Source: an uncultured Flavobacteriales bacterium
GTDB taxonomy: Bacteria > Bacteroidota > Bacteroidia > Flavobacteriales_D > CALLUQ01
Length of the DNA: 56,529 nucleotides
Assembly: GCA_938010565.1 (NCBI GenBank)
Contig: CALLUQ010000126.1
Span: forward strand, 1 to 56,529
Direction: 5' to 3'
Of this stretch, positions 18,483-56,529 are shown piece by piece. The first letter of the stretch is position 1. Each line of letters starts with the position of its first letter. The notes below the pieces were generated by a model. That model was not told where the DNA came from. It saw nothing but the letters and a program-made list of their open reading frames with translations, and searched no databases. The position numbers and the translations under genes were made by a program.

Positions 18483-21086
18483 ATGAAAAAAAGCCGGTAT
18501 ATATTTATCTTGCTGTTGTTTTTAATCGCAGGGTGTTCTGCTTCCTTACAAGCACAAAAACGGAAGCCTTCCAAAATGAACCTTGCGCTGCACAGTTATC
18601 TGCTTCATGCAAAAAACAGAAAAGCGCAGACGGCTTTGATGGTGGAAGGCGATATCGCCTTGATCTGGGAGTTTACACGCCAAAAAAAGGGGGTCTGGAA
18701 ATACCACCACAGATCCACCGCATTCCTTTCCCTTCCGGCAGATCAGATCGAAAATCTTGCTTCCTTGCCTTTTGTGGAACGCATGGAGTTTTCACAAGCC
18801 AAGGGCACCCCGCTGAACGATGTCATGCGCATCAACAATCGCATCATCCGGGCGCATCATGGCGACTCCATTCTTTCGCAGGGTTATACAGGTAAAAATG
18901 TGTTGTTGGGGTTTATCGATACGGGAGGAGAATTTTTACATCCCGACTTTCTGGATAGTACGGGCAAAACCCGTGTGGCAGGCATCTGGGATCAAACCGA
19001 TTCGTCCGATCCTGCCCGCATTCCTGCCAAATATGGCTACGGAAATGTTTGGAACAGCGCCGATATCGATGCCGGGGTTTGTGCCCACATCGACGAGTCG
19101 GGCCACGGTTCAACCGTTATGGGAAGTGCGGCCTCGAACGGAGGCAGCGATACGTTGTACACCGGGGTTGCACCGGGCTCCATGTTGGCCATCGTAGAAA
19201 GCGATTTTAGTGCTGTTAACTGGACGGCTACCGTGGCAGATGGAGTTGATTATCTGGTAAACCTAGCCGATTCGCTCGATGTGCCGCTGGTAATCAATGC
19301 AAGTGTGGGTACGTATGCCGGTTCGCACGATGCAAAAGACGCCGCAGGCCTGTTCATCGATTCCATATTGGATGCAAAACAAGGCCGGGTAATGGTTGCG
19401 GCTGCCGGCAATGCCGGAGGGTTGGCTTTTCATCTCGGATACGATGTTACACCCGATACTTCCTTTACCTGGTTTTTATCGGGTAATGGTTTACAAGGCT
19501 ATTCCAATGCCCTGTTTATAGAGGCTTGGGCCGATTCGCTCGATTTCGAAAATGTGCAATTTGCCATCGGTGCCGATGATCCGGTGAACAACCGTTTTTC
19601 GGGGAGTACCCATTTTTACAGCCCCCCTGCCATCAATGGCATGTTGGTAACCGATTCGATCAAAAATAGCAACGGCGATCTGATCGCACCCATTCTGATC
19701 TACTGCGAACACAACAACGGCCGCTACCTGCTACAGGTACTGGCTGCCGATCCCGATAGCAGTGCGCATTTATTTCGTTTCATCACCACCGGTACCGGGC
19801 ATGTGGACATCTGGAGTGCTTCCTGGCTGGGTTTCTCCGATATGGTTACGGCGATCCCTCCTCTCTCCGAATTTCCGGATGGTGTGCATTACCAATTTCC
19901 CGACCATCATTCGAGTATAGTAAGCAGTTGGAATTGTTCGGAAAAAGTGATTTCCGTAGGCAACTGGGTGGGCCGTACCCAATACACCGATTACCATGGG
20001 AACCTTCAAACGGTAGGAGGAACATTGCACGATATTTTCTTTGGTTCCAGTTACGGGCCCACACGTCAAAATATAGTCAAACCGGATGTGGCGGCAACCG
20101 GACAGGTGCAACTTTCTTCCGGAACTTATTTTTCATTGGCCTGGCTCATTGCCAATGAGCCTCATAAAGTAGCGCCTTCTGGGTTACACGTACGGAACGG
20201 AGGTACTTCCATGGCTGCCCCCGTAGTGGCAGGAATTTCCGGGCTGATGTTGGAGCAATGCCCTACGGCCGGTTGGAGTGAGGTAAAAGCAGCCATTATG
20301 CATACGGCCCGTACCGATAGTTATACCGGCACTGTGCCCAACAACCAATGGGGCATGGGAAAAGCAGATGGGTTTGCCACTTTGTTGAGTAACGTGTATA
20401 CCATCGAACTAACCATACTGGGCGATACGATTTTTTGTGAAGGAGACGGTGTAGGTTTTGAAGCTCCGGCGGGTTATGCGAGTTATTTGTGGTCAACCGG
20501 CGATACCACTTCGTCCGTCTATGTATCCGTTTCCGACACCATTTCCGTGGCGTTGGTAGATGCAGCGGGTTGTTCCGGAAATTCCGTTCATTACACCACA
20601 CAAATGCACCCGCGACCTGAAGTGCCTATCGTTACCCAAATGAACGATACCCTTTACTCCAGCACGGAAGAGGGGTGCCAATGGTATATCCGTGATACGG
20701 CAATTGCCGGTGCAAACAACGGTTTTTATATCCCTTCTTCGTCCGGATGGTACAGCGTGGAAGTTACCAATGCAGCGGGTTGTACAGCCAGGTCAGATTC
20801 CTTTCTGTTCTTGCTTTCGGGCTTTTCGGAGGGGTGGCCCGAAGGAGTGTCCGTTTGGCCCAACCCATTCAAAAACGAAATTCGCATCTACTGCGAAAAA
20901 GGATGTTCCGCATATAAAAATATGCTACTGATCAATAACCTGGGCCAGAAAGTATACCAACGGGACCTTCGGAGTAAGCCGGGCACCAGCACTTCATTTC
21001 AGGTGAACGATCTGGCCCCGGGCCTTTATTTTTTACGCCTTGGGATGGGTTATAACCAGGTTACTTTCCGCGTATTGCGTCTTTAG
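18483..21086 (+). CDS. S8 (subtilisin) serine peptidase with T9SS type A sorting domain
   Basis: Catalytic triad motifs IDTG, GHGSTV and GTSMAAP; KPDVAATG; C-terminal VWPNPF..NNLGQ..LAPGLYFLRL. Confidence 0.92.
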   Translation: MKKSRYIFILLLFLIAGCSASLQAQKRKPSKMNLALHSYLLHAKNRKAQTALMVEGDIALIWEFTRQKKGVWKYHHRSTAFLSLPADQIENLASLPFVERMEFSQAKGTPLNDVMRINNRIIRAHHGDSILSQGYTGKNVLLGFIDTGGEFLHPDFLDSTGKTRVAGIWDQTDSSDPARIPAKYGYGNVWNSADIDAGVCAHIDESGHGSTVMGSAASNGGSDTLYTGVAPGSMLAIVESDFSAVNWTATVADGVDYLVNLADSLDVPLVINASVGTYAGSHDAKDAAGLFIDSILDAKQGRVMVAAAGNAGGLAFHLGYDVTPDTSFTWFLSGNGLQGYSNALFIEAWADSLDFENVQFAIGADDPVNNRFSGSTHFYSPPAINGMLVTDSIKNSNGDLIAPILIYCEHNNGRYLLQVLAADPDSSAHLFRFITTGTGHVDIWSASWLGFSDMVTAIPPLSEFPDGVHYQFPDHHSSIVSSWNCSEKVISVGNWVGRTQYTDYHGNLQTVGGTLHDIFFGSSYGPTRQNIVKPDVAATGQVQLSSGTYFSLAWLIANEPHKVAPSGLHVRNGGTSMAAPVVAGISGLMLEQCPTAGWSEVKAAIMHTARTDSYTGTVPNNQWGMGKADGFATLLSNVYTIELTILGDTIFCEGDGVGFEAPAGYASYLWSTGDTTSSVYVSVSDTISVALVDAAGCSGNSVHYTTQMHPRPEVPIVTQMNDTLYSSTEEGCQWYIRDTAIAGANNGFYIPSSSGWYSVEVTNAAGCTARSDSFLFLLSGFSEGWPEGVSVWPNPFKNEIRIYCEKGCSAYKNMLLINNLGQKVYQRDLRSKPGTSTSFQVNDLAPGLYFLRLGMGYNQVTFRVLRL

Positions 21087-24353: not shown

Positions 24354-26867
24354 ATGAACTCTGCCAAAACGAACGTGTCCGAAAGTAGGGTACTGAGGGC
24401 AATTGCCGTGGGATTCCTATTCATGGCAATGCTGCCGGCCCGCGGGCAACTCAATATAGGGGCTGATACCACAATATGCCTGGGCCAATCCATTACACTT
24501 ACGGCTTCCTATGGCGTTCCGGGAAATAATTTCGATTTTAATAGCCTGCAACAAATTCCCCTTATTGATGACCAATATTCGGGCGTTATTGATTTGGGGT
24601 TTAGCTTCTCTTTTTACGGTACCCCATACACACAATGCCTGCTTTCCTCCAACAATTACATCACTTTTGATCTGACAAAGGCCGGCTTGTTTTCGGAATG
24701 GGAATTCGACGTTCCCATTCCGAATGCCAGTTTGCCTACCAATGCCATTATGTGCCCTTATCAGGATATTAACCCGGGAGCGGGGGGGGTGATTGAATAC
24801 GGAACGATCGGAACAGCACCCAACCGAATTTTTGTCGTTCGTTACCTTTCGGTACCCATGTTTCTTTGTAATGCTAATAAGTTCTGTTCTGCTGTTCTGT
24901 TGTATGAAGGCAGTAACCGCATTGAAACCCATTTGGAAAACAAAATGCTTTGCTCCAATTCCAATACTATCACCCCTGCCATTCACGGTACGCATAATGA
25001 CTCCGGAACACGTGCGGATGTGGTTTCGGGAAGAAATTACCCCGAGCAATGGGAGGCCTCTATGGATGCCTGGGAATGGGTGCCCAATGGCCCTAATTCG
25101 TATACGATTAATTCCATTCCATTCCTGAGGATCATTTCAAACAACAATGCGTTTGACTGGAGGGAAGTTTCTAACAACACCATAATAGGAACCGGCAATT
25201 CCATCACGGTTGCTCCCACCACCACCACCACCTATTGGACGGAAGTTGCGGCCCTTTGCGGAGGAACGGGTAATTCTGGGAATTATGACCTGATTGATCA
25301 CATTACCATAACGGTTGTTCCCGCTTCTTCTGCCACGGTTACCCATACCAATCCCATTTGCACTCAAAATGCAAGCGGAACTGTTAGCGTTACTCCCAAC
25401 TCGGGTAGCCCTCCATGGAGATACGACATTACAGATGCAGGTGGCGGGGTATTGCATACGATGACTTCCACAGGCCCTGGCCCCGATGTAATAACGAATG
25501 TTGTAGCGGGCACCTATCAGGTGGTGGTGACCGATAGCTTTGGATGTTCAACGCAATCGCAGGTGGTAATCAACGGGAATTCTCCTGTTGTGGTTACTCC
25601 AAGTACGGATACGCTGATTTGTTTGGGTGGAACAGCCACCATCGATGCGGTTGCTTCTGGAGGCTCCGGTACCCCGTATGATTTTTCCTGGAATCAAAGC
25701 TTAATCGGTAACGGGCCACATGCTGTTTCTCCTGTGGCGAATGCCTGGTATAGGGTGCAGGCAACCGATCAGGATGGCTGTGCTTCTGCTTACGACAGTG
25801 TTTATGTAGCATTACACCCTGGCATTACCGCACTTATCCAATCGCCGGACTCCATTTGCCCCGGAGACTCTTCGGTTCTGACCGTTGCCGCTGTTGGTGG
25901 CGATGGCAGCGATTTTATGTACTCCTGGTCAGATGGTACTTCCGCCATTGGATCCGACTCATCGGTTGTGGTTTACCCTTGGGATGATCATACTGTGCAA
26001 TATTGCGCTACTGTTCATAACGGATGCGAGGCCTCTCCGGCAATGGTTTGTACCACCGTTCCGATTTACGAACTGCCTTCCGTAACTTTTGTGTCAGACA
26101 CCAATGAAGTTTGTTTGTTTCCCGGTTTGATCCACTTCCAAAATACCACCAATGTTCCCGTAAGCAGTGTAACCTGGGATTTTGGAGACGGTACGATCGT
26201 CCACGAGACCTCCCCCTTCGCCGAACATACTTACCATACCGCCGGCTCTTTTGATGTGAACCTCAGCATTACCACAGTCGAAGGCTGTGTGGTGAACGGA
26301 GATCTGCCAAAATTGATCCGTGTCCGTTCGCATCCGGATGCGTATTTTGAGGCTACTCCTCCATCCACCGATATTTTTGAAACAAAAATCGACTTCCACA
26401 ATGGGTCTGTCGGGAATGTTTCAAATTTATGGGATTTTAATGGCCTCGGCACCTCCGAAGAAATGCACCCTACGTTCGAGTTCGCTCCGGGCATTTCCGC
26501 TCATTACCAGGTAAAGCTTACCGTATGGGATGCATTCAATTGTTCGGATTCTTACCTTGACGAAGTGGTGGTTGAAAATGGCCTTCTGGTTTATGCTCCC
26601 AATGCATTTACACCCAACGGCGATGGTTTAAACGATTTTTTCTACGTGGCTGCAGAGAATGTAAGCGACCATGCGTTTGAGTTTTATGTTTTTGATCGTC
26701 AGGGGCACATCATCTGGAGGACGGTCAACAAAAAAGATGCATGGAACGGTTTGGTGAATGATTTCGAAAAAGCACCTTCGGGAGTTTATACATGGAAGAT
26801 CAGAGCACGAACACAAAAAGAGAACAAACGTTTTGAAAAAATAGGTTATGTTACTGTGATCCGATAA
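24354..26867 (+). CDS. Secreted adhesin-like protein: NIDO-like N-terminus, Ig/PKD repeats, T9SS type B (gliding-motility) CTD
   Basis: DDQYSGVIDLGFSFSFYG; WDFGDG..HTY..AGSFDVNL (PKD); YAPNAFTPNGDGLNDFF..FDRQG..WNG..GVYTW..GYVTVIR. Confidence 0.88.
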   Translation: MNSAKTNVSESRVLRAIAVGFLFMAMLPARGQLNIGADTTICLGQSITLTASYGVPGNNFDFNSLQQIPLIDDQYSGVIDLGFSFSFYGTPYTQCLLSSNNYITFDLTKAGLFSEWEFDVPIPNASLPTNAIMCPYQDINPGAGGVIEYGTIGTAPNRIFVVRYLSVPMFLCNANKFCSAVLLYEGSNRIETHLENKMLCSNSNTITPAIHGTHNDSGTRADVVSGRNYPEQWEASMDAWEWVPNGPNSYTINSIPFLRIISNNNAFDWREVSNNTIIGTGNSITVAPTTTTTYWTEVAALCGGTGNSGNYDLIDHITITVVPASSATVTHTNPICTQNASGTVSVTPNSGSPPWRYDITDAGGGVLHTMTSTGPGPDVITNVVAGTYQVVVTDSFGCSTQSQVVINGNSPVVVTPSTDTLICLGGTATIDAVASGGSGTPYDFSWNQSLIGNGPHAVSPVANAWYRVQATDQDGCASAYDSVYVALHPGITALIQSPDSICPGDSSVLTVAAVGGDGSDFMYSWSDGTSAIGSDSSVVVYPWDDHTVQYCATVHNGCEASPAMVCTTVPIYELPSVTFVSDTNEVCLFPGLIHFQNTTNVPVSSVTWDFGDGTIVHETSPFAEHTYHTAGSFDVNLSITTVEGCVVNGDLPKLIRVRSHPDAYFEATPPSTDIFETKIDFHNGSVGNVSNLWDFNGLGTSEEMHPTFEFAPGISAHYQVKLTVWDAFNCSDSYLDEVVVENGLLVYAPNAFTPNGDGLNDFFYVAAENVSDHAFEFYVFDRQGHIIWRTVNKKDAWNGLVNDFEKAPSGVYTWKIRARTQKENKRFEKIGYVTVIR

Positions 26868-48733: not shown

Positions 48734-49164
48734 TTCTTTTCAAAAAATAACAGGTCTTTGTTAGGCCCTTTGTTGAGGTATATAGAAAAAGAACCATTAG
48801 GTTGAATTTCTATTCTGTGACCTTTTGTAAACGCCGTCACACTTCCATCTTCATGACGTTTCACAAATGTATCATCCAATATCCCATACATTCTACCATC
48901 ATTTCTATTAGGCATAAGAGCAGCGTTAGGGTTCTTTTTCACACCACTAAAAGCATCTTCAACAAAATCCAGTTGATTATTAATTAGTTGAATGGCCTCA
49001 TTCGGGCTTTCAGGCATGGATGCTTCTTGCAAGCCATTTTTAAACTTCCGGAGTCTTTCTTCTTTACTAAGTACACCAATAACCCCTCCCCAAACAACGC
49101 CCTCCAATGCACCCCATCCTCCTTCTTCCCACGATCGTCCGAAACTTTCCTTTGCAACCCTTCT
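48730..49164 (-). pseudogene. Putative polymorphic-toxin C-terminal domain, out of frame with TssD
   Basis: Frame is open from 49164. VEDAFSGV..DGRMY..TKGHRIEIQPNGSFSI resembles Rhs-type toxin tips. Coupled to a small gene. Confidence 0.5.
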
Positions 49165-49607
49165 TTATGGGCAGTCCTTTCATCCAAAGGCACTCTGCTT
49201 TCCCGCCAGGGTTTTATCCAAGTTACTTCTTTGATCTCCTGCATGGCGGCGGAAATGGTCAGCGTCACTGTCATCGGGGCTTCACCGGTACCATTAAATT
49301 CCTCCTTCCAATACACAAAAGCCGCATCCTTCAACCGGTACTCAAAAAGGACCACTTCATCCGGATCTCCGGCGTAAAATACGATTTTAGCGGTTGTTAA
49401 TGTGCAAAGTTCGCCTTCCGGGCTGTGAGTTAATCCATACAACAACCGATCATCGCCGGCACCGGATACAAAAGTAAGGGTAACAAGGCCTCCCATCGGG
49501 ATGGGGCCGGGCCGGGCTGTTTTAGCAGTTCGTGTTCTGTAGTATTCCAGATCGGTGGATAACAACTCTCGTTTGGTCCCCAAAACGAATAACCGGGATT
49601 TGATCAT
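48984..49607 (-). CDS. tssD: TssD (Bacteroidota T6SS tube/Hcp-like) domain protein with out-of-frame tail
   Basis: RP..IPMGGLVTLTFVS, KIVFY, L.DAAFVYWKEEF..GEAPMTVTLTISA..IKPW matches the TssD pattern over ~137 aa. The remainder reads like frameshifted sequence. Confidence 0.7.
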   Translation of the reverse strand: MIKSRLFVLGTKRELLSTDLEYYRTRTAKTARPGPIPMGGLVTLTFVSGAGDDRLLYGLTHSPEGELCTLTTAKIVFYAGDPDEVVLFEYRLKDAAFVYWKEEFNGTGEAPMTVTLTISAAMQEIKEVTWIKPWRESRVPLDERTAHKEGLQRKVSDDRGKKEDGVHWRALFGEGLLVYLVKKKDSGSLKMACKKHPCLKARMRPFN

Positions 49608-49903
49608 GGTGTGGCCGGTTGACTTTCAGGAGTTTTATGTGAGTGGTTGCTCATAGTTCGGAACAATGCTGCATGATCCGTACATGTAGCACTTATATTC
49701 GTTTCCAGTCAGATGGGGTGTTTTTGCCATGCCGGAACGCAGTTTTAACGGATGATCCGGAATAACAAAAGTGCTTTTATTTTTGATATTGAAGGGAATT
49801 TTGAAGTAAGATCCTATGGTAGAGTGTCATACTTGTTGCTATTATTGATCCGGGACATAGAAAGGATATTTATTGAAAAAGCTCTGCTATTACGAGGTTT
49901 TTA

Positions 49904-51082
49904 TTATGGCAAGTTGTGAAGTTTCTTATTGCCTTGCAAAACAAAATACAATATGCTGACTAGAAGTGTAAAAGAGCAAACATAAAATACGAGTGGTAAT
50001 CGGTTGGTATCGTTGTCATATATCCAGCCGGAAACAAATGCCCCCAACCCGGATCCCATCTGGACCGCCATCAATGTGGTTGAAAGGCCTTTGCCCACAG
50101 CCGTTTTGGGACTCATCTTGACAGTCCAGGCCAAGAGTGCCGGATGACACATACCCAAACCCAACCCTAATACCACGCCACTGGTTAGAAATAAACTTTG
50201 GCTTTGAGTATGGGCAAGCATCAGCATACTTACCAATGCCAAGGTGCTACCGAATATAAAAACGGGCAGATAACCATATTTGTCCGATGTTTTTCCTGCC
50301 AAGACTCGAATAAGCATCGTGCTGATGATAAAAAATAAGAAAAAGATCCCCCGATGAGAAAACTTCAGATGGTCACTCATATCCGGAATAATGGTAAAAA
50401 TCGTGCCGAAACAAAAGGAAGAAAGCATCGTAACCAGCGAAAATTTCAACATTTTCGGCACAAAAAAATCGGTCAACTTCAGGTTAAAGAAGGTTTTCTC
50501 TAATCTCGCGACATTTTTCCGCGGTTCCTTCATCTTGACCAGTAGCAAAATAACCATTGCTGACAAGACACTTGAAATATAAAACATCAAAGTTGTTGAA
50601 ACCTGAGTGGCTATTACCGGCCCCAAGGCAAACCCCAATGTGGTACCCAGGTTGTTGAACAAACCCATAATGCCCATCGACTGCCCTATCTTTGTGTCGG
50701 GTACTATATCTGCTACATACGCCGCGGAGCCCACAGGATAGAATCCCATGGAAAGGCCATGGAGAAAACGAAGAAAGAAAAAACTGCCTACCGTTATGGC
50801 AAGGGGATAAAATATAGCTACCAGCGCACCTATCAATGATGCCGTGATCATAACGGGTATTCGGCCAATATGGTCGGCCAATTTACCGCTCAGGGGTCTG
50901 GACAAGGCAGCCCCCCAAAAAAACAAACTCATAATTAATCCCTTATTCGAATTCTCGCCGATGCGCTCCAGATAAGTAGGCAACTCCGCCACAATCATAT
51001 TGATACTTGTAAAAAACATCATCGAACTCATGCACAGAAGCATCATGGATGGGGTAAACAAAGAAGTCTTTTTATGTATCAT
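49904..51082 (-). CDS. MFS transporter
   Basis: About 12 TM segments; motif A (SGKLADHIGR; AGKTSDKYG); RFLHG. Confidence 0.9.
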   Translation of the reverse strand: MIHKKTSLFTPSMMLLCMSSMMFFTSINMIVAELPTYLERIGENSNKGLIMSLFFWGAALSRPLSGKLADHIGRIPVMITASLIGALVAIFYPLAITVGSFFFLRFLHGLSMGFYPVGSAAYVADIVPDTKIGQSMGIMGLFNNLGTTLGFALGPVIATQVSTTLMFYISSVLSAMVILLLVKMKEPRKNVARLEKTFFNLKLTDFFVPKMLKFSLVTMLSSFCFGTIFTIIPDMSDHLKFSHRGIFFLFFIISTMLIRVLAGKTSDKYGYLPVFIFGSTLALVSMLMLAHTQSQSLFLTSGVVLGLGLGMCHPALLAWTVKMSPKTAVGKGLSTTLMAVQMGSGLGAFVSGWIYDNDTNRLPLVFYVCSFTLLVSILYFVLQGNKKLHNLP

Positions 51083-51257
51083 CTGTCCGTCAAGGAAGGG
51101 TTATCTAAACAGGGGTTGCGAAATAATGTCAAATTTCCTAAGATATTGCATCCGGATTGTCGGCATTCGGGAAGCATTCGACAGGAGATTGATTTTTGTT
51201 TTATACAGGGAGAGTCATTTTCCAGCCTTTTGCCGATCACCAGGGATTGGACCACTA

Positions 51258-52109
51258 TCACCGTTGTGCTGCCTGAGCGATCAATTCATGCTCACGCCTG
51301 TATGCTGCAAAAGATCGCTTTGAAAAAAGCATGATGATGCTTAGGGTCCATCGAACAGGCAATATCCTAAAGAATATGAAGAGAAACTTATAGCCAATCC
51401 CGGGCACAAATATCGGTTGCTTCCCGAGTCTTTTTAAGGTGCCTTTGATAACTGTTCTCATAGATAGCTGATAAAAAAACATTTTTTTGTAATTGATAAC
51501 CTCCCGCTGGGCCAATGTTGTGGACATATCGGTTTTCACCAATCCTGGTAGTACCGTAATAACGTTGATCCCTAGTGCCTTGCCTTCGTTGTACAAGGAG
51601 CAACCAAGACTGGTCAAAAATGATTTTGTCGCTGAGTATAGGGAAAAATAGGGGACCGGAGAGCCACTAGCCATCGACGAAACCAAAATTAAATTTTTCC
51701 GGCTATGAGAAGTTTTTCTTATCATAATATGCTTGATGAGAGATACCGCACTCACGTTGTTGAGCATGATCATGGGAATATGAAAATCTACAGCACTGAA
51801 GAAACTGCCCTGATCATAAGTACCGGCACTAAGCACCAAATATGTGATGTCAAACTTATCTGATTCCGATATCGTCTTGCGGATGCCCTCCTCCGTCGAT
51901 AGATCTGCCTGAATGTATTCGACAAATACTCCTTCCCGGGTGCTTATCTCAGTTGCTTTTGCTTTGAGTAAATCCAGCCTTCTGGAGACCAGTAGAATAT
52001 TCAAGCCTGTTTGCGCAAGTTCACATGCAAATGCATAGCCTATTCCGCTGGCTCCCCCGGTAACCAGAGCCCACCGACCTGGCTTGGTTGTGTTTTCGTT
52101 CTTAGGCAT
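51258..52109 (-). CDS. Short-chain dehydrogenase/reductase (classical SDR)
   Basis: WALVTGGASGIG, VSRR (NADP-type basic site), VSS, YSATK, PGLVKT. Confidence 0.92.
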   Translation of the reverse strand: MPKNENTTKPGRWALVTGGASGIGYAFACELAQTGLNILLVSRRLDLLKAKATEISTREGVFVEYIQADLSTEEGIRKTISESDKFDITYLVLSAGTYDQGSFFSAVDFHIPMIMLNNVSAVSLIKHIMIRKTSHSRKNLILVSSMASGSPVPYFSLYSATKSFLTSLGCSLYNEGKALGINVITVLPGLVKTDMSTTLAQREVINYKKMFFYQLSMRTVIKGTLKRLGKQPIFVPGIGYKFLFIFFRILPVRWTLSIIMLFSKRSFAAYRREHELIAQAAQR

Positions 52110-52114
52110 AGGGA

Positions 52115-53311
52115 TCAAGATAAAAACCGATGAACATAAGACTGGAAAGTTTGGGAAATGGCCTTCTCATCCATATCGAATTGAGATAGACTATAATGGT
52201 TTTTGCCATGTTTATGCTGTTTATTGTGGTGGATATAGTTCGCTATCACTTCATTTTGCACAGGCTGCAACCCAAAGTGATGGTGAATTTTCTGAACCAA
52301 TTTTTTGGGGTCCTGTAGCAGTTTCCGGTAGTCTGCATGGAAGACCTGCTTGCCCTGCTTCGATCTGGAAAAATCCACAGAACGGCTGGCATAAGTGCTG
52401 ACCTTCAAAAGGTTGTGGTCAACAGACTTACGCCAGTCCAGATTTTGGGTAGCCATTGCATGTAAAGACAGGATAAGTTTCGTTTCGCTGGCTACGATTT
52501 GTGTCGGGTCTCGATGGGTCTGTACAATAAGTGCTTCTGGCAGTGCGGATACCAATGAAGGCAAATACGCCATATGGTGAGGGCATTTGAGTACTAAATA
52601 TTGGTTTGGCCTCTGGCGCTGGTGCAAAATGAGGACCTTCCTGTAGAGGGCATAAGTTTCACTTAGATCCTGTTCCAGTAACCATTGCAAATATTGGTAG
52701 GTGGGTGCTGTCGCCCAATACAACATGGAATGTGCCGCCAGTCTCATCCCAAAAGTACACTCATCAGGCAGTGTGGGTCGAATGCGATGCATACTGTCCA
52801 TGCCGTAGCGTTTACCTGCCCACTGCCAGGGCTTGAAATTTGCCTGCACATGCCATTTTCGAAAATAAACCCTGCTCATTTTCAGAGGCCAGATATGTTG
52901 GTATAGCGGGATCCCAAAAGCATCTGGCGGTGCGGATAGCATACGGTGCAAATAGGTAGTACCACTGCGCGGCAACCCCGTGACCACCAAAAAGGGGTTG
53001 ATTTTGGTATTTTGCAGGTCGGGGTTTTGTTTGAATTGCTCCTCGATTTGCAGCAAAGTGGATAGTCCGCTGCTCAACAGGTACCAAACATTCTTTTTGC
53101 CAAACCAATGTAGGCGGGCTTCATCGGTATAGGAGCGACACAATACCTCCAGCGCCTGCTCCACATGAGCGGGAAAGTTGGGAGGTAGATTTGCCATGCG
53201 AGCCGATGCCTTCATAATATGTTCGGGCATCAGCTTTACCTTAGAGAGCGTATGCCGCAAAAATGGAGGTAAAGGTTTGACCTCAAACCCTGTTTCAGTA
53301 CTGTTGCTCAT
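52115..53311 (-). CDS. PAPS-dependent sulfotransferase (Sulfotransfer_3-like)
   Basis: 5'-PSB loop VTGLPRSGTTYLHRML, LKCPHH, 3'-PB QTHRDP..S, and C-terminal HGKNHYSL. Confidence 0.88.
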   Translation of the reverse strand: MSNSTETGFEVKPLPPFLRHTLSKVKLMPEHIMKASARMANLPPNFPAHVEQALEVLCRSYTDEARLHWFGKKNVWYLLSSGLSTLLQIEEQFKQNPDLQNTKINPFLVVTGLPRSGTTYLHRMLSAPPDAFGIPLYQHIWPLKMSRVYFRKWHVQANFKPWQWAGKRYGMDSMHRIRPTLPDECTFGMRLAAHSMLYWATAPTYQYLQWLLEQDLSETYALYRKVLILHQRQRPNQYLVLKCPHHMAYLPSLVSALPEALIVQTHRDPTQIVASETKLILSLHAMATQNLDWRKSVDHNLLKVSTYASRSVDFSRSKQGKQVFHADYRKLLQDPKKLVQKIHHHFGLQPVQNEVIANYIHHNKQHKHGKNHYSLSQFDMDEKAISQTFQSYVHRFLS

Positions 53312-53981
53312 GATCTATGGTATGATGTTTTAGGATATCAAATATCTGTGTGCCGTGGTCCATCGATTGCTCCCGGATCGGGATGGGGTCTTCAATGGCC
53401 GCATGGAGAAATGATGAAATAGCACCCTCCTCTCCTATAATGATCTCTCCAACACCTCGCTCATGCTCGTTGAGTACGCCGGTTATGTCAATATCTACTC
53501 GATATACATGCTGGTTATCCGTAGAAAAAGCCTGGTAATGGCGAGATGCGGAAGCATCATCATCTTGCATGACGGTCATTTCAAAGAGTTTGCTGTCTTG
53601 GTCGGATACGCAAACTGTTTTCGTCGATTGTTCGGTGTGGAAATCTATTTCCAACATGCTGTCATGGCTGGGGAAAAGCCATTTTTCGGTAGCATGACGC
53701 CGGGATATTTCGGTATCTGTGCCCAGAAAAAAAGGAAAAAGGGCAAAGTGGGGCATCCTTGAGTTTGCCGGTGCCCAGGGCGACACTAAAATGGAGATGA
53801 CCGCCTCATGATATGCTCCAACCATACTTTCACTGAAATCGAAGGCGGTGACGGCAACTACGCCAAGGCCCGGATGAGCCTCCAGAGGGGTCAATTCTTT
53901 CGGTAATTTTTGCCTGATGACTTCGAGGTCAGCCAGAAAAAAAGCACCTACGGCTTCTTTGAATGTATAATAGGTATTCAT
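53295..53981 (-). CDS. Acetoacetate-decarboxylase-like fold protein
   Basis: LPKELTPLE..G.GVVAVTAFDF..S.VGAYHE..ISI matches the ADC-superfamily N-terminal pattern. Confidence 0.65.
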   Translation of the reverse strand: MNTYYTFKEAVGAFFLADLEVIRQKLPKELTPLEAHPGLGVVAVTAFDFSESMVGAYHEAVISILVSPWAPANSRMPHFALFPFFLGTDTEISRRHATEKWLFPSHDSMLEIDFHTEQSTKTVCVSDQDSKLFEMTVMQDDDASASRHYQAFSTDNQHVYRVDIDITGVLNEHERGVGEIIIGEEGAISSFLHAAIEDPIPIREQSMDHGTQIFDILKHHTIDHEQQY

Positions 53982-55232
53982 TTAAATGATTTTATGTTTT
54001 CGCAACACGTCAGCAATGAGGGCCGCAGCGCGATTTAGTTCTGATGGCTCGTGAGCAGCCGAAATGGCAATTCGAAGCCGCGGTTCATTTAAGTTTACTG
54101 CCGGGTATATCACCGGATTCAGATAGACACCTGCCTGGAGCAGATCTTTTGTGATGTCGAAGATGTTGTCCTTTTTTTTCACAATCACGGGGATTATTTG
54201 TGTGGTCGAAGTACCCATATTGACCCCAGACTCTAGTAGGGCCTGGCGCATAATTGCTACATTGTTCCACAATTTTTCTCGTAGTTCCGGTTCTTTTTTC
54301 ACGATGCGCAACGCGGCAATTAACCCTCCGGCCACAACCGGACTCATCGCGCATGAAAACAATTGTGCACGGGCATAGGCAAATAAGTACTCGGTAAGTT
54401 TTTTCGAAGCCACGACATATCCTCCCATACCACCCAGGCTTTTGGACATGGTACCTAAGCGAATATCGATGGCGTCTTCCACTCCAAATTTTTCAGCGAC
54501 CCCTCGGCCATGCTCACCACAGACAAACGCAGAATGAGCTTCATCTACCATGAGTCGTGCGCCATATCGTTGGCACAACTCAACCACTTCCGGTATAGGC
54601 GCCATGTCGCCATCCATGGAGTAAACACCTTCTACAATGACCAACTTCCGCCCATGCGTTTTCGATAAATATAACTCCAGGCTATTCATGTCATTGTGAC
54701 GAAACAACTTCACGTTGGCACGAGCCATGATACAGCCATCAATGATGCTGGCGTGCGCATATCTGTCGATAATGACGGTGTCATTTTTACCTACAAGGGC
54801 AGAGATGGTGCCCACATTGGCACTGTATCCGGAAGGAAATAAAAGAACAGACTCTGCTTGTTTGAATGCTGCCAACTCTGTTTTCAGCATCTCATGAATA
54901 TCCAAAGAACCACTGAGCAAGGGTGATCCGGAAGCCCCCAGCCCGTAGTATTCTACTGCGCTGACTGCTGCCTGAATTACTTCGGGTCGATAAGAGAGGC
55001 CGAGGTAGTTGTAGGAAGCCAGATTGATCATGGGAGACGTAGTGTATCCGTTGATCTCTATGCGGGTTGAGGGGGAGGTATTGGCATAATCAAGGTATAA
55101 TTGATACCCTTGTTTCTTGGATACTTCGAGCCAGGCGTAGTAGTGATGCACGATGTCGAATAAATCATCGCCCGTGTTGTTTACAAAATGACTCAAATTA
55201 TAATCACCGTGATTTTTGGTGAATGCGTTCAT
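53982..55232 (-). CDS. PLP-dependent alpha-oxoamine synthase (SPT/BioF/KBL family)
   Basis: SYNYLGL, SGYSAN, HASIIDG, FRHND, EGVYSMDGD, DEAH and GTMSKSLG (PLP lysine). Confidence 0.92.
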   Translation of the reverse strand: MNAFTKNHGDYNLSHFVNNTGDDLFDIVHHYYAWLEVSKKQGYQLYLDYANTSPSTRIEINGYTTSPMINLASYNYLGLSYRPEVIQAAVSAVEYYGLGASGSPLLSGSLDIHEMLKTELAAFKQAESVLLFPSGYSANVGTISALVGKNDTVIIDRYAHASIIDGCIMARANVKLFRHNDMNSLELYLSKTHGRKLVIVEGVYSMDGDMAPIPEVVELCQRYGARLMVDEAHSAFVCGEHGRGVAEKFGVEDAIDIRLGTMSKSLGGMGGYVVASKKLTEYLFAYARAQLFSCAMSPVVAGGLIAALRIVKKEPELREKLWNNVAIMRQALLESGVNMGTSTTQIIPVIVKKKDNIFDITKDLLQAGVYLNPVIYPAVNLNEPRLRIAISAAHEPSELNRAAALIADVLRKHKII

Positions 55233-55327
55233 AGAAATGTATGTTAAAAAAGTAGATTTATCTTCTATGGGTACTGATCACCTCTCCAATGATGGCATTG
55301 CATCGGGTGAGGGGTTCGGAAATGCCC

Positions 55328-55609
55328 TTAACCAGTTCGTTTTCCTCGGCTACGTCCAGGGTTTTGAATAAGCCCTTCAGTGCCAGGGTCAGCACTGTCC
55401 GGGCTTCGGCATTGGTTAGGAACATGCCGCACCTGTTCCTCTATGCACGAACCCAATGCCGCTTCAAAGTAAATTTGCTCCCCTTTCAACTCTTGAAGCC
55501 ACTCGGTGACATTTACCACAGCTTGGTAGTTGATGGATTGGAGGGCTTGGACCCAAATGGCACTCACCACGAACAGTGTTAGGCATAGGGTTAGAATATT
55601 TGTTTTCAT
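55328..55609 (-). pseudogene. 5' remnant of a secreted protein
   Basis: Signal peptide followed by QSINYQAVV, a common N-terminus of Bacteroidota secreted proteins; the sequence then degenerates. Confidence 0.4.
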
Positions 55610-55849
55610 ATAGTGGGTGCTTTTAGTTATCGTTAGCCCCTGGGGTGTGTAATAGTTTCGACTTGATCTGACAATTAAGGTTGTAAGTTTGGGTTTTCTT
55701 TAGGGACAAAACTCCGAAAATGATTTTTAGGTATAGGGGCGATTTCTGCCCCACTATCATTTCGGTCGACAAGGCTATTCCTGACAAGTTGGCCCCCACC
55801 AGAACTTGCTTCCGCTTCACCTTGTGGTTCTAAATTACTAAAATTATCG

Positions 55850-56094
55850 GACAAGCTTTTCAATAATTTTTCTTTGGCCAAATAAAGGGAGTTATTCCAA
55901 GTCTGTTTTGGCGTTTTTCCATAGCAGTGCTTACCGGAATGTGTGTAATATTCCATCCATTGATCCAAATCAACTTGTAGATCTTCAATGGAGTAAAATT
56001 CTTCCTGTACGGTTCGATGGAAGCGTTCACATATTTCACTGGTCTGAGGATTTTTTGCCTTGGTTTTTGGTGTGGTCCACATCTTCAATTGCAA
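55850..56094 (-). mobile_element. IS481-family transposase remnant (3' part)
   Basis: TKAKNPQT..ICERFHRTVQEEFY..IEDLQVDLDQW..THSGKHCYGKTP, with internal deletions. Confidence 0.8.
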
Positions 56095-56180
56095 GGTATA
56101 ATTGGTATTTATAATCTGATTCCGACCATTAATCTATTGTTAGTCAGTTAACTATGTTGATAATGAGCGTCATTAAAATA

Positions 56181-56490
56181 GGGGAATTGCTGAACTTTGT
56201 GATTACTTAAGCGAATGTAGGCGACATAACTCCGTTGAAAAACAGCAATTTCGTGGAAAAAATAAGAGGTAAACGCTATGCGGATAAAGGGTACATTGGA
56301 AAGAAGTTAACCGAGTTGCTTTTCATAGGTGGTATCCATTTGGTCACTTCCATCAGAAACAATAGGAAGAATACCTCAATGGAACTCAAGGATAAAATTT
56401 TGCCCGGAAAAAGATCGGTGATTGAAACGGTCAATGATGAATTAAAAAAACAGGTGCCGGATGGAGCATTCAATGCACAGATGTGCGTCC
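56181..56490 (+). mobile_element. IS982-family transposase remnant
   Basis: Manual translation GELLNFVIT*ANVGDITPLK..YADKGYIGKKL..GIHLVTSIRNN..KRSVIETVNDELK. TAA at 56208-56210 and a frameshift in the A-run near 56443-56450. Confidence 0.82.
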
Positions 56491-56529
56491 AGCAAAGGCT
56501 GTTGTATTCAGAGGGTGCAAGCCCCTTAA

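Follow-up and report, generated by a model that had tools for sequence, protein, structure and literature searches.

The genetics of bacterial sphingolipids is known from a few model pathways, represented by Spt, CerR, bCerS and CpgB and by CapA, CapB and CapC. In the capnine pathway sulfur enters as cysteate, giving a C–S sulfonate, and a sulfotransferase is not needed. Here we describe a five-gene locus on a 56,529-nucleotide contig of an uncultured Flavobacteriales bacterium (GenBank assembly GCA_938010565.1, contig CALLUQ010000126.1), the whole of which is called the window below. Its genes encode an alpha-oxoamine synthase (AOS) resembling serine palmitoyltransferases (SPTs), a protein with the fold of acetoacetate decarboxylase (ADC), a sulfotransferase of the type using 3'-phosphoadenosine 5'-phosphosulfate (PAPS), a short-chain dehydrogenase/reductase (SDR) and a transporter of the major facilitator superfamily (MFS).

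The available text on Caulobacter describes CpgB, related to sphingosine kinases, as adding the first phosphate to ceramide (PMC9393093), and that on Myxococcus xanthus describes an SPT active on serine (PMC13692747). The latter enzyme might be a member of the ADC-paired AOS clade defined below. For CurM and olefin synthase (OLS) modules, the text available reports a PAPS sulfotransferase acting on a fatty-acid-derived intermediate that is loaded by a fatty acyl-AMP ligase (FAAL) and an acyl carrier protein (ACP) (PMC11837247). The locus points to an SPT-like synthase that is always accompanied by an ADC-fold partner, and to a subclade whose lipid-kinase slot is filled by a sulfotransferase, an arrangement that predicts O-sulfated sphingoid lipids. 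No report linking an SPT-like synthase to an ADC-fold protein or a sulfotransferase was found in open-access main texts, a scope outside which supplementary SPT phylogenies and gene tables lie; a review of FAALs and a lipidome study in PNAS likewise offer nothing on AOS or on the sulfation of sphingolipids. On balance we lean towards regarding the locus as a module, gained by horizontal transfer, whose product is an O-sulfated long-chain amino-alcohol, a sphingoid-type lipid, which would be made by the AOS/ADC-like pair, the SDR and the sulfotransferase and exported or flipped by the MFS protein.

The synthase, its partner and the gene that follows

The AOS was classed in three ways: by curated hidden Markov model (HMM) cut-offs, by similarity to structures in the PDB and by comparison with the host genome's own classified paralogues. 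It carries the domain of the family together with the pyridoxal phosphate (PLP) lysine, K264, and with H160, E231 and H233, all located by alignment with the paralogues; every one of the 86 ADC-paired AOS sequences keeps these four residues and R387. Its top solved relatives are SPTs, beginning with the Sphingobacterium enzyme (3a2b/8guh, 269.5 bits) and followed by 2x8u (237.6 bits). The solved cysteate fatty acyltransferase (CFAT, or CapB; 28eh) scores 198.2 bits and CqsA (2wk8) 115.8 bits, the latter being the lowest-scoring AOS group among the 48 PDB matches listed at E<=1e-30. The sequence lies under every NCBIfam equivalog cut-off. Its highest single score there, with the bioF model TIGR00858 (370 bits, cut-off 426.45), is nearly tied with those of the SPT models and of the models for KBL (TIGR01822, 287 bits against a cut-off of 493; NF005394, 337 against 460), and the CqsA model NF005526 gives 218.1 bits against 428.

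Phylogenetic analysis sets the ADC-paired synthases apart. The more careful of two trees was calculated with IQ-TREE (LG+G4) from 49 rows, namely the window AOS, six sulfotransferase-linked sequences, hydrolase-linked and other rows, paralogues and 18 kinase-type sequences drawn at random from 37; 31 short-contig rows, 19 kinase-type rows and one very long paralogue (L213) were left out. In this tree the ADC-paired AOS form one clade of 37 rows (support 100/98), outside which the host's KBL and CFAT fall, and the window AOS and the six sulfotransferase-linked ones form a clade of seven (99/89). A quick tree of all 100 rows contains the same two clades, with SH-aLRT values of 99 and 88. The window AOS sits on a long branch (0.52), its best identity being 61% there and 62% in a large protein collection.

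The pairing itself is without exception in our data: in each of the 64 loci with at least 700 nt of downstream sequence, an ADC-like gene follows that of the AOS within 200 nt. The ADC-like protein of the window scores 24.9 bits with the Pfam ADC family (PF06314), under the gathering cut-off of 29.8, and 27 of 43 members of its own family match PF06314 at E<=0.01. That family is rare, with 115 representatives at E<=0.001 among 1.84 billion proteins. Sequence-only PDB searches, with ADC-like profiles or a distant member as query, returned nothing meaningful, and an Atlas search gave only the label 'ADC'. The fold is clearer from structure: the AlphaFold (AF2) model is of high confidence (predicted local distance difference test, pLDDT, 96.4; predicted template modelling score, pTM, 0.92), and Foldseek finds 24 matches at E<=0.001, of which all 16 listed belong to the ADC superfamily (TMq 0.55-0.72, probability 1.0), CaADC, Sbi_00515, Swit_4259 and MppR among them.

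In CaADC, K115 is the catalytic, Schiff-base-forming residue. We located its column by means of canonical ADC genes from genomes of the host's phylum, whose P-K-K stretch corresponds to K115 and K116 in an alignment with PDB 3bh2. An hhalign comparison with these canonical ADCs (probability 97.7) places S105 of the window protein in the Lys115 column, and a lysine occurs there in just four of the 43 family members, while the equivalent of Glu76, E59 in the window protein, is kept in 41 of them. Lacking the catalytic lysine, the ADC-like protein is not an enzyme of the acetoacetate decarboxylase type. The residue-105 column also varies with gene context, being His in all 33 kinase-linked partners, E, C, R or V in sulfotransferase-linked ones and S in the window, a pattern which hints that the pocket of the partner may be tuned to the downstream chemistry. 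A different subfamily is represented by a 296-residue Bacteroidota protein (L101; contig C95 of genome G017, 1114-2004), which keeps the lysine at the ADC position (GMPKHK) and whose gene directly adjoins an unannotated ORF of 337 residues.

A model of the AOS in complex with the ADC-like protein scores 0.72, the best of three controls scoring 0.00. For comparison, 58 of 80 solved complexes and two of 110 mismatched pairs reach that value, counts that are rough in the present case since our own alignments were used. The runs share at least 96% of contacts and the partner has a pLDDT of at least 87. On the AOS side the predicted interface comprises residues 3-34, 164-191 and 380-382, and on the ADC-like side residues 31-39, 67-78, 140-148 and 172-175. 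Much of the former belongs to an N-terminal extension, at about residues 10-45, that is specific to the clade: the alignment to solved SPTs begins only at residue 35, and the stretch is well conserved among paired sequences (F16 in 75 of 75, D23 in 76 of 76, W34 and Y43 each in 86 of 86). Gaps at the N-termini of 13 paralogues in the same alignment partly reflect the ends of tblastn local alignments. We know of no solved AOS/ADC complex, so it seems unlikely that the high score comes from the memory of the model. The earlier note on this DNA, which was made from the letters alone, gave the ADC-fold protein no role; the constant pairing, the lost lysine and the predicted complex point instead to an obligate partner, probably bound through the N-terminal extension of the AOS. 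A reversed pair is seen in a genome labelled Enhygromyxa (G402, contig C256, 2953-4943; L199, L210), where the ADC-like gene comes first and the AOS gene about 120 nt later; this AOS, 37% identical to that of the window, belongs to a more distant second pair.

The sulfotransferase lies well above the Sulfotransfer_3 cut-off (27 bits). Its P114 R115 S116 G117 T118 T119 stretch (PRSGTT) and R267 and P269, which we take to be the 5'-phosphosulfate and 3'-phosphate binding motifs, are invariant in 22 homologues. Among solved chains it comes closest to 2zq5 (186 bits) and 2z6v (158 bits), with alignments that span almost the full length, and the nearest homologues, around 50% identical (best 54%), bear names such as Polyangiaceae, Deltaproteobacteria and Planctomycetota metagenome-assembled genomes (MAGs). 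In a genome scan with one genome per species, from which 80 loci were kept, seven carry a sulfotransferase at least 45% identical to that of the window. Six of these seven also have AOS and ADC-like genes, completing a triad whose order is that of the window in five and sulfotransferase, AOS, ADC-like in one; the seventh stops at a contig end 33 nt before the sulfotransferase. No AOS or ADC-like gene occurs, within the DNA scanned, in any of the other 73 loci, where the sulfotransferase is at most 35% identical. This subfamily of sulfotransferases is thus specifically tied to the ADC-paired AOS.

A metagenome scan with the AOS alignment matched at least 598 stretches, at least 549 of them encoding AOS relatives, and gene context was taken from the best 80, whose AOS are 46-56% identical to that of the window. 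When these are pooled with the genome loci, 46 have at least 2 kb downstream of the pair, and the next gene encodes a YegS/DAGK_cat lipid kinase in 29, a sulfotransferase in five, an alpha/beta-hydrolase in four, PaaX in two, an FAAL in one and an unrecognised product in five. The sulfotransferase is absent from all 37 kinase loci, and the kinase from all six sulfotransferase loci: the two are mutually exclusive occupants of the slot after the AOS/ADC-like pair. The kinase loci also bear a PIP-synthase-like CDP-alcohol phosphatidyltransferase (23 of 37), and the gene of a mycolate-reductase-like SDR adjoins that of the AOS on its upstream side in 18 of the 58 loci with at least 1.5 kb upstream; sphingolipid pathways have reductase and head-group functions of this kind, and the phosphorylation of ceramide by CpgB in Caulobacter is a precedent (PMC9393093). 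In 26 of the 37 there is, further, a protein of about 330 residues with no Pfam or NCBIfam match. Its gene (L116-L191) is often present as a tandem pair, as at L131:6058-7089 and L131:7079-7978, and usually adjoins that of the phosphatidyltransferase; the protein is a candidate for an N-acylation or head-group-activation step of an undescribed phosphosphingolipid pathway.

Around the triad, FAAL is encoded directly upstream of the AOS in two relatives, downstream as an FAAL-ACP in one, and in another as part of a fused FAAL-ACP-AOS protein of 1077 residues. One relative has genes for a zinc-dependent alcohol dehydrogenase and a TetR regulator after the sulfotransferase, and another HlyD and AcrB genes upstream.

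The locus, its origin and its host

The earlier note had described five co-oriented, intact ORFs with tight junctions, and both statements agree with the ORF list, its translations and its coordinates (Table 1). The TAA of the AOS gene is followed directly by the ATG of the ADC-like gene (TAAATG, 53984-53979), the ADC-like and sulfotransferase ORFs overlap by 17 nt (53295-53311), and 5 nt (52110-52114) separate the TGA of the sulfotransferase gene from the SDR ATG. This ATG, at 52109, is the start chosen by the database's own gene call and yields 283 residues; starting from an upstream TTG yields 286. The five family labels proposed at that stage are likewise those given by Pfam and NCBIfam, the ADC match being under the Pfam cut-off as noted above. 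A scan of 49500-55800 found 12 sigma-70-type promoters where 11.2 were expected and 10 terminators where 6.5 were expected, neither being above chance, though the scan does not model Bacteroidota promoters.

Table 1. Features of the five-gene locus and its flanks, in window coordinates.
Feature	Position	Strand	Basis
Alpha-oxoamine synthase (PLP, fold type I), SPT-like, 416 aa	53982-55232	minus	PF00155 Aminotran_1_2, 186.5 bits
ADC-fold protein without catalytic lysine, predicted AOS partner, 228 aa	53295-53981	minus	fold, hhalign, synteny
PAPS-type sulfotransferase, 398 aa, in the slot held by a lipid kinase in the sister clade	52115-53311	minus	PF13469 Sulfotransfer_3, 102.1 bits
Classical SDR, candidate 3-ketoreductase, 283-286 aa	51258-52118	minus	adh_short, 102.2 bits
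Intergenic gap SDR/MFS, 175 nt	51083-51257	minus	ORF coordinates
MFS transporter, drug/metabolite-exporter type, candidate exporter/flippase, 392 aa	49904-51082	minus	MFS_1, 181.3 bits
TssD/Hcp-domain ORF with C-terminal extension	48984-49607		Pfam/NCBIfam
IS481-type fragment	55675-56094	minus	Pfam/NCBIfam
IS982-type fragment	56235-56528	plus	Pfam/NCBIfam

The SDR has the cofactor-binding (TGGASGIG) and catalytic (YSATK) motifs of a classical member of its family; its best NCBIfam match, to mycolate reductase, reaches 106 bits, below the cut-off, and the closest homologue shares just 38% identity with it. For the MFS protein there is a paralogue of 36% identity on another contig of the host (C101). 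In 46 loci no homologue of either was found in the 5 kb that follow the AOS, and the SDR and MFS genes look like local additions or recruits not conserved with the triad. The five genes had previously been put forward as a set; the co-occurrence search narrows this to the AOS, ADC-like and sulfotransferase genes, found together in the six relatives.

The flanks had been read as toxin debris and two insertion sequence (IS) remnants, and a TssD/Hcp ORF and IS481- and IS982-type fragments are indeed present, the contig ending at 56529 just past the latter fragment. Within the TssD/Hcp ORF, the 300-nt bin 49306-49606 has a summed contig depth of about 170 against about 9 in its neighbours, with many variant letters and loose ends, so that the element must be polymorphic or present in several copies within the community. 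On the other side, contigs from an independent study agree from 55648 rightwards and diverge in several ways to the left of it (agreement 0.53-0.63). Position 55648, 416 nt upstream of the AOS start, is where a repeated element of IS481 type ends. A minus-strand ORF of 93 residues (55328-55609) with a signal-peptide-like start (MKTNILTLCLTLFVVSAIWVQA...), situated between the IS fragment and the AOS gene, may be a remnant.

Regarding origin, a sulfotransferase search of 400 other genomes of the host's phylum gave nothing above 27% identity, and the ADC-like profile gave three weak matches (63-69 bits) in the same genomes, at least one of which (that in G017, L101) is of the lysine-bearing subfamily mentioned above. 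This accords with the earlier statement that the route was not recognised in Bacteroidota. The triad's relatives are MAGs of Myxococcota or Planctomycetota type with genomes of 8-9.5 Mb. Given this distribution, and the absence from the phylum in our sample, acquisition by transfer between phyla would be the simplest reading. Base composition of the five genes gives no sign of recent transfer: GC and GC at third codon positions (GC3) are within about 0.5 standard deviations of the genome mean (GC3 z -0.48 to +0.52), and codon-distance percentiles are 62-95, a measure confounded by gene length. The transfer is therefore either not recent or from an unsampled donor of similar composition. In a run labelled as marine metagenome, possibly the source of this DNA, one contig covers 49635-56324; each of the five genes is also represented in runs of a second study, labelled as plastic metagenome, by short pieces that show 0-1 differences apiece.

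The window is contig C126 of a 3.02-Mb assembly of 211 contigs, 91.6% complete and of 45.6% GC. Four AOS paralogues are encoded in this genome: a KBL (686.5 bits with TIGR01822, cut-off 493), a BioF-like protein whose gene adjoins bioB on contig C156 and is interrupted by the contig end, a CFAT on contig C3 (603.8 bits to PDB 28eh, 603 to 7u7h) and the AOS of the window. The CFAT gene (about 364-1665 of locus L003, outside the window) adjoins a BamD-like gene. With so clear a CFAT, the host probably also makes capnine-type sulfonolipids and would then have two separate routes to sulfur-bearing sphingoid lipids. PAPS synthase is missing from the cluster, as previously remarked, with the suggestion that the host supplies PAPS; an APS (adenosine 5'-phosphosulfate) kinase gene is found on contig C24, so the host is able to make it. 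Elsewhere in the window are a subtilase with a Por_Secre_tail domain (18483-21086) and a PKD/SprB-repeat protein with a CHU_C domain (24354-26867), both of them type IX secretion cargo, which fits a gliding host; these domains and the CFAT gene together speak for Bacteroidota.

A predicted pathway and its alternatives

The proposed pathway would begin with the SPT-like AOS working as a complex with the ADC-fold protein, docked on the N-terminal extension of the synthase. The complex would condense a small amino acid, most simply serine, which would provide a C1 hydroxyl, with a fatty acyl thioester to yield a 2-amino-3-keto lipid, whose 3-keto group the SDR would reduce. The sulfotransferase, with PAPS made by the host, would then sulfate a hydroxyl, most likely at the position phosphorylated by the lipid kinase in sister clusters. 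The outcome would be an anionic lipid without phosphorus, analogous to a sphingoid or ceramide 1-phosphate, which the MFS protein would export or flip. In its substrates, sulfation site and sequence of steps, as in the function given to the ADC-like protein and in the export, this scheme is an inference. The product is best read as a sphingoid-like amino-lipid, since SPTs are the nearest solved relatives of the AOS and genes for lipid kinases and CDP-alcohol phosphatidyltransferases accompany the sister clade. The earlier note had suggested this product class, which the SPT-like AOS and the lipid genes of the sister clade favour; its picture of five conserved genes did not stand, and it missed the ADC-like partner.

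Several observations weigh against this interpretation. The amino acid used by the AOS is not readable from its sequence, and the three SPT models are all missed (NF047600, 352.2 bits against a cut-off of 640; NF047599, 343.8 against 500; NF047603, 273.1 against 670). The score of the predicted complex is a matter of model confidence only. At the D/E-H-P stretch of its family, the ADC-like protein of the window has EEGA, whereas the His is present in all six copies linked to a sulfotransferase, in 28 of the 33 linked to a kinase and in 19 of the 21 others, so that the window copy may be altered or impaired. FAAL or FAAL-ACP, beside or fused to the AOS in four of the six relatives, is missing at the window locus, and the best FAAL-like match in the host genome is of 32% identity and lies inside an ORF of 2204 residues; with the FAAL of one relative (L010) as the only query, no orthologue was found in the 91.6%-complete assembly. 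The flank where FAAL lies upstream of the AOS in three relatives (L007, L008, L011) is, in the window, the IS debris and contig end of 55648-56529, and two relatives (L005, L006) lack an adjacent FAAL as well. Because no reductase is encoded at five of the six relatives' loci, sulfation of a keto-stage intermediate, or of the amine instead, is conceivable. No SDR or MFS homologue above 60 bits occurs in the loci of the six triad relatives, and since the SDR is so distant from its nearest homologue these two genes may be unrelated neighbours.

A different fate for the sulfate has to be considered, namely that it is a transient leaving group, placed by the sulfotransferase on the aminoketone or amino-alcohol, as in the logic of CurM and olefin synthases. 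The activated compound would next eliminate or cyclise, perhaps in the pocket of the ADC fold, to an unsulfated product such as an enaminone, alkene, diketone or alpha-hydroxyketone, which the SDR would reduce. The shared slot of kinase and sulfotransferase is compatible with this, as both install good leaving groups; so is the lack of a reductase in most relatives, which would make the sulfated group the serine-derived hydroxyl, beta to the activated carbon, and so is the presence of aldolase-dehydratases in the ADC superfamily (4zbt and 6eej among the Foldseek matches). The Schiff-base lysine that such chemistry needs is, however, absent from the ADC-like protein (K in 4 of 43), and 12 of 46 AOS/ADC-like pairs have neither a kinase nor a sulfotransferase adjacent, so that the ADC-like protein is independent of the activating enzyme. 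Further, the phosphatidyltransferase of the kinase loci points to the building of head groups rather than to elimination, and the cluster has no thioesterase. We think this course unlikely. Similarly improbable in our view is that the product is a small diffusible signal, a sulfated aminoketone or hydroxyketone of CqsA/LqsA type built on a short or medium acyl chain, for which the MFS protein would be the exporter. The gene content does resemble a set of synthase, reductase and exporter, and the cluster is small, mobile-looking and beside IS debris. But CqsA is the most distant AOS group by both HMM (218 bits against 428) and structure (116 bits against 269.5 for SPT), which leaves the CqsA-type signal offered as an alternative in the earlier note looking weak; relatives carry FAAL-ACP, which acts on fatty acids, the sister clade has lipid kinase and phosphatidyltransferase genes, and no sensor kinase lies beside the cluster.

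We are also doubtful, to the point of thinking it improbable, that the cluster is an incomplete passenger or one in decay, which an IS insertion has severed from its gene for acyl activation, with an impaired ADC-like subunit and no product in this host. The IS481 and IS982 fragments and the contig end do lie directly upstream, where relatives have FAAL, the near-universal His has been lost, and all relatives are distant (AOS at most 62%, sulfotransferase at most 54% and SDR at most 38% identical). Yet five ORFs are full-length with no frameshift or stop, the catalytic residues of the AOS and the motifs of the sulfotransferase are intact, composition close to that of the genome argues for long residence, two of the six relatives likewise do without an adjacent FAAL, and the same sequence recurs almost unchanged in a second study. 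Finally, it is extremely unlikely that the AOS is an additional CapB, or a BioF or KBL of the housekeeping kind, among unrelated neighbours, even though its best single NCBIfam score is with bioF. That score is below the cut-off and nearly tied with others, and the host has such enzymes already, namely a KBL that clears its cut-off, a BioF-like protein encoded next to bioB and a CFAT with 604 bits to 28eh, where the window AOS reaches 198.2. The tree places the window AOS among the sulfotransferase-linked ones, in a clade separate from the host's KBL and CFAT, and translational coupling (TAAATG, the 17-nt overlap) ties it to its neighbours. BioF/KBL and CapB/CFAT were accordingly rejected as identities for the AOS; here cut-offs, paralogues and tree uphold the earlier note.

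Beyond the sulfated-lipid module that we prefer, a broader idea can be entertained, more tentatively and with some doubt. The AOS/ADC-like pair may be a long-chain-base synthase of two subunits that has gone unrecognised and is widespread among Myxococcota, Gemmatimonadota, Planctomycetota and related bacteria of the environment, in which an ADC-fold subunit without decarboxylase chemistry would gate or receive the lipid, or N-acylate it. Exchange of kinase for sulfotransferase would have led to phosphorus-free, sulfate-headed sphingolipids, and the host would have obtained its copy by inter-phylum transfer. If true, this would provide a genetic origin for the orphan sulfated (deoxy)ceramides of marine lipidomes. 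The swap of phosphate for sulfate, if real, would also fit phosphorus-sparing membrane remodelling in the sea.

Comparison with described systems

Sulfate-1-deoxyceramides have been reported from the Black Sea water column, and the word 'sulfotransferase' does not occur in the available text of that report (PMC11334938). The triad is a candidate for the genes behind such sulfated deoxyceramides.

Among described pathways, bacterial sphingolipid synthesis (Spt/CerR/bCerS with CpgB) is similar in its start with an SPT-like AOS and in its ketoreductase, and the sister clade even has a kinase of the sphingosine kinase family beside the synthase. The AOS of the window differs in missing the three SPT cut-offs and in being obligately paired with an ADC-fold protein; genes of bCerS or CerR type are not recognised at its locus, and a sulfotransferase replaces the kinase. 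The capnine pathway (CapA, CapB/CFAT, CapC) shares the use of an AOS and an SDR towards a sulfur-bearing, sphingoid-like lipid in Bacteroidota. The window cluster departs from it in having a sulfotransferase and an AOS that falls in another clade, with 198 bits to CFAT 28eh. Compared with CqsA and LqsA, which are also AOS enzymes yielding an aminoketone for further processing, the window AOS shows its lowest similarity within the family, there is no cognate sensor gene, and the context is one of fatty-acid activation and lipid head-group genes.

The two other conserved proteins can be compared in the same way. The ADC-like protein has the fold of the ADC superfamily (CaADC 3bh2, Sbi_00515 4zbt, Swit_4259 5upb, MppR 4jmc) and keeps the Glu76 equivalent, but differs in its S105 at the Lys115 column, its score under the Pfam cut-off and its constant pairing with an AOS. 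The sulfotransferase is closest among solved structures to mycobacterial Stf-type enzymes, presumably Stf1 (2zq5) and Stf9 (2z6v), although the database label is 'putative uncharacterized protein'. It shares with them the PRSGTT and RDP-type PAPS-binding stretches, but their acceptors may be different, and we know of no linkage of Stf-type sulfotransferases to an AOS. With CurM and OLS modules there is a likeness of logic, in that a PAPS sulfotransferase acts on a fatty-acid-derived intermediate after FAAL-ACP loading. The window cluster, however, is without a polyketide synthase module or thioesterase, its sulfotransferase is of a different subfamily, and its product is more likely to retain the sulfate.

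Taken together, curated tests place the AOS outside the SPT cut-offs and outside BioF, KBL, CFAT and CqsA, and its partner lacks the lysine of ADC. The locus most likely works like the long-chain-base synthesis of bacterial sphingolipids and sulfonolipids, by a route not yet described.

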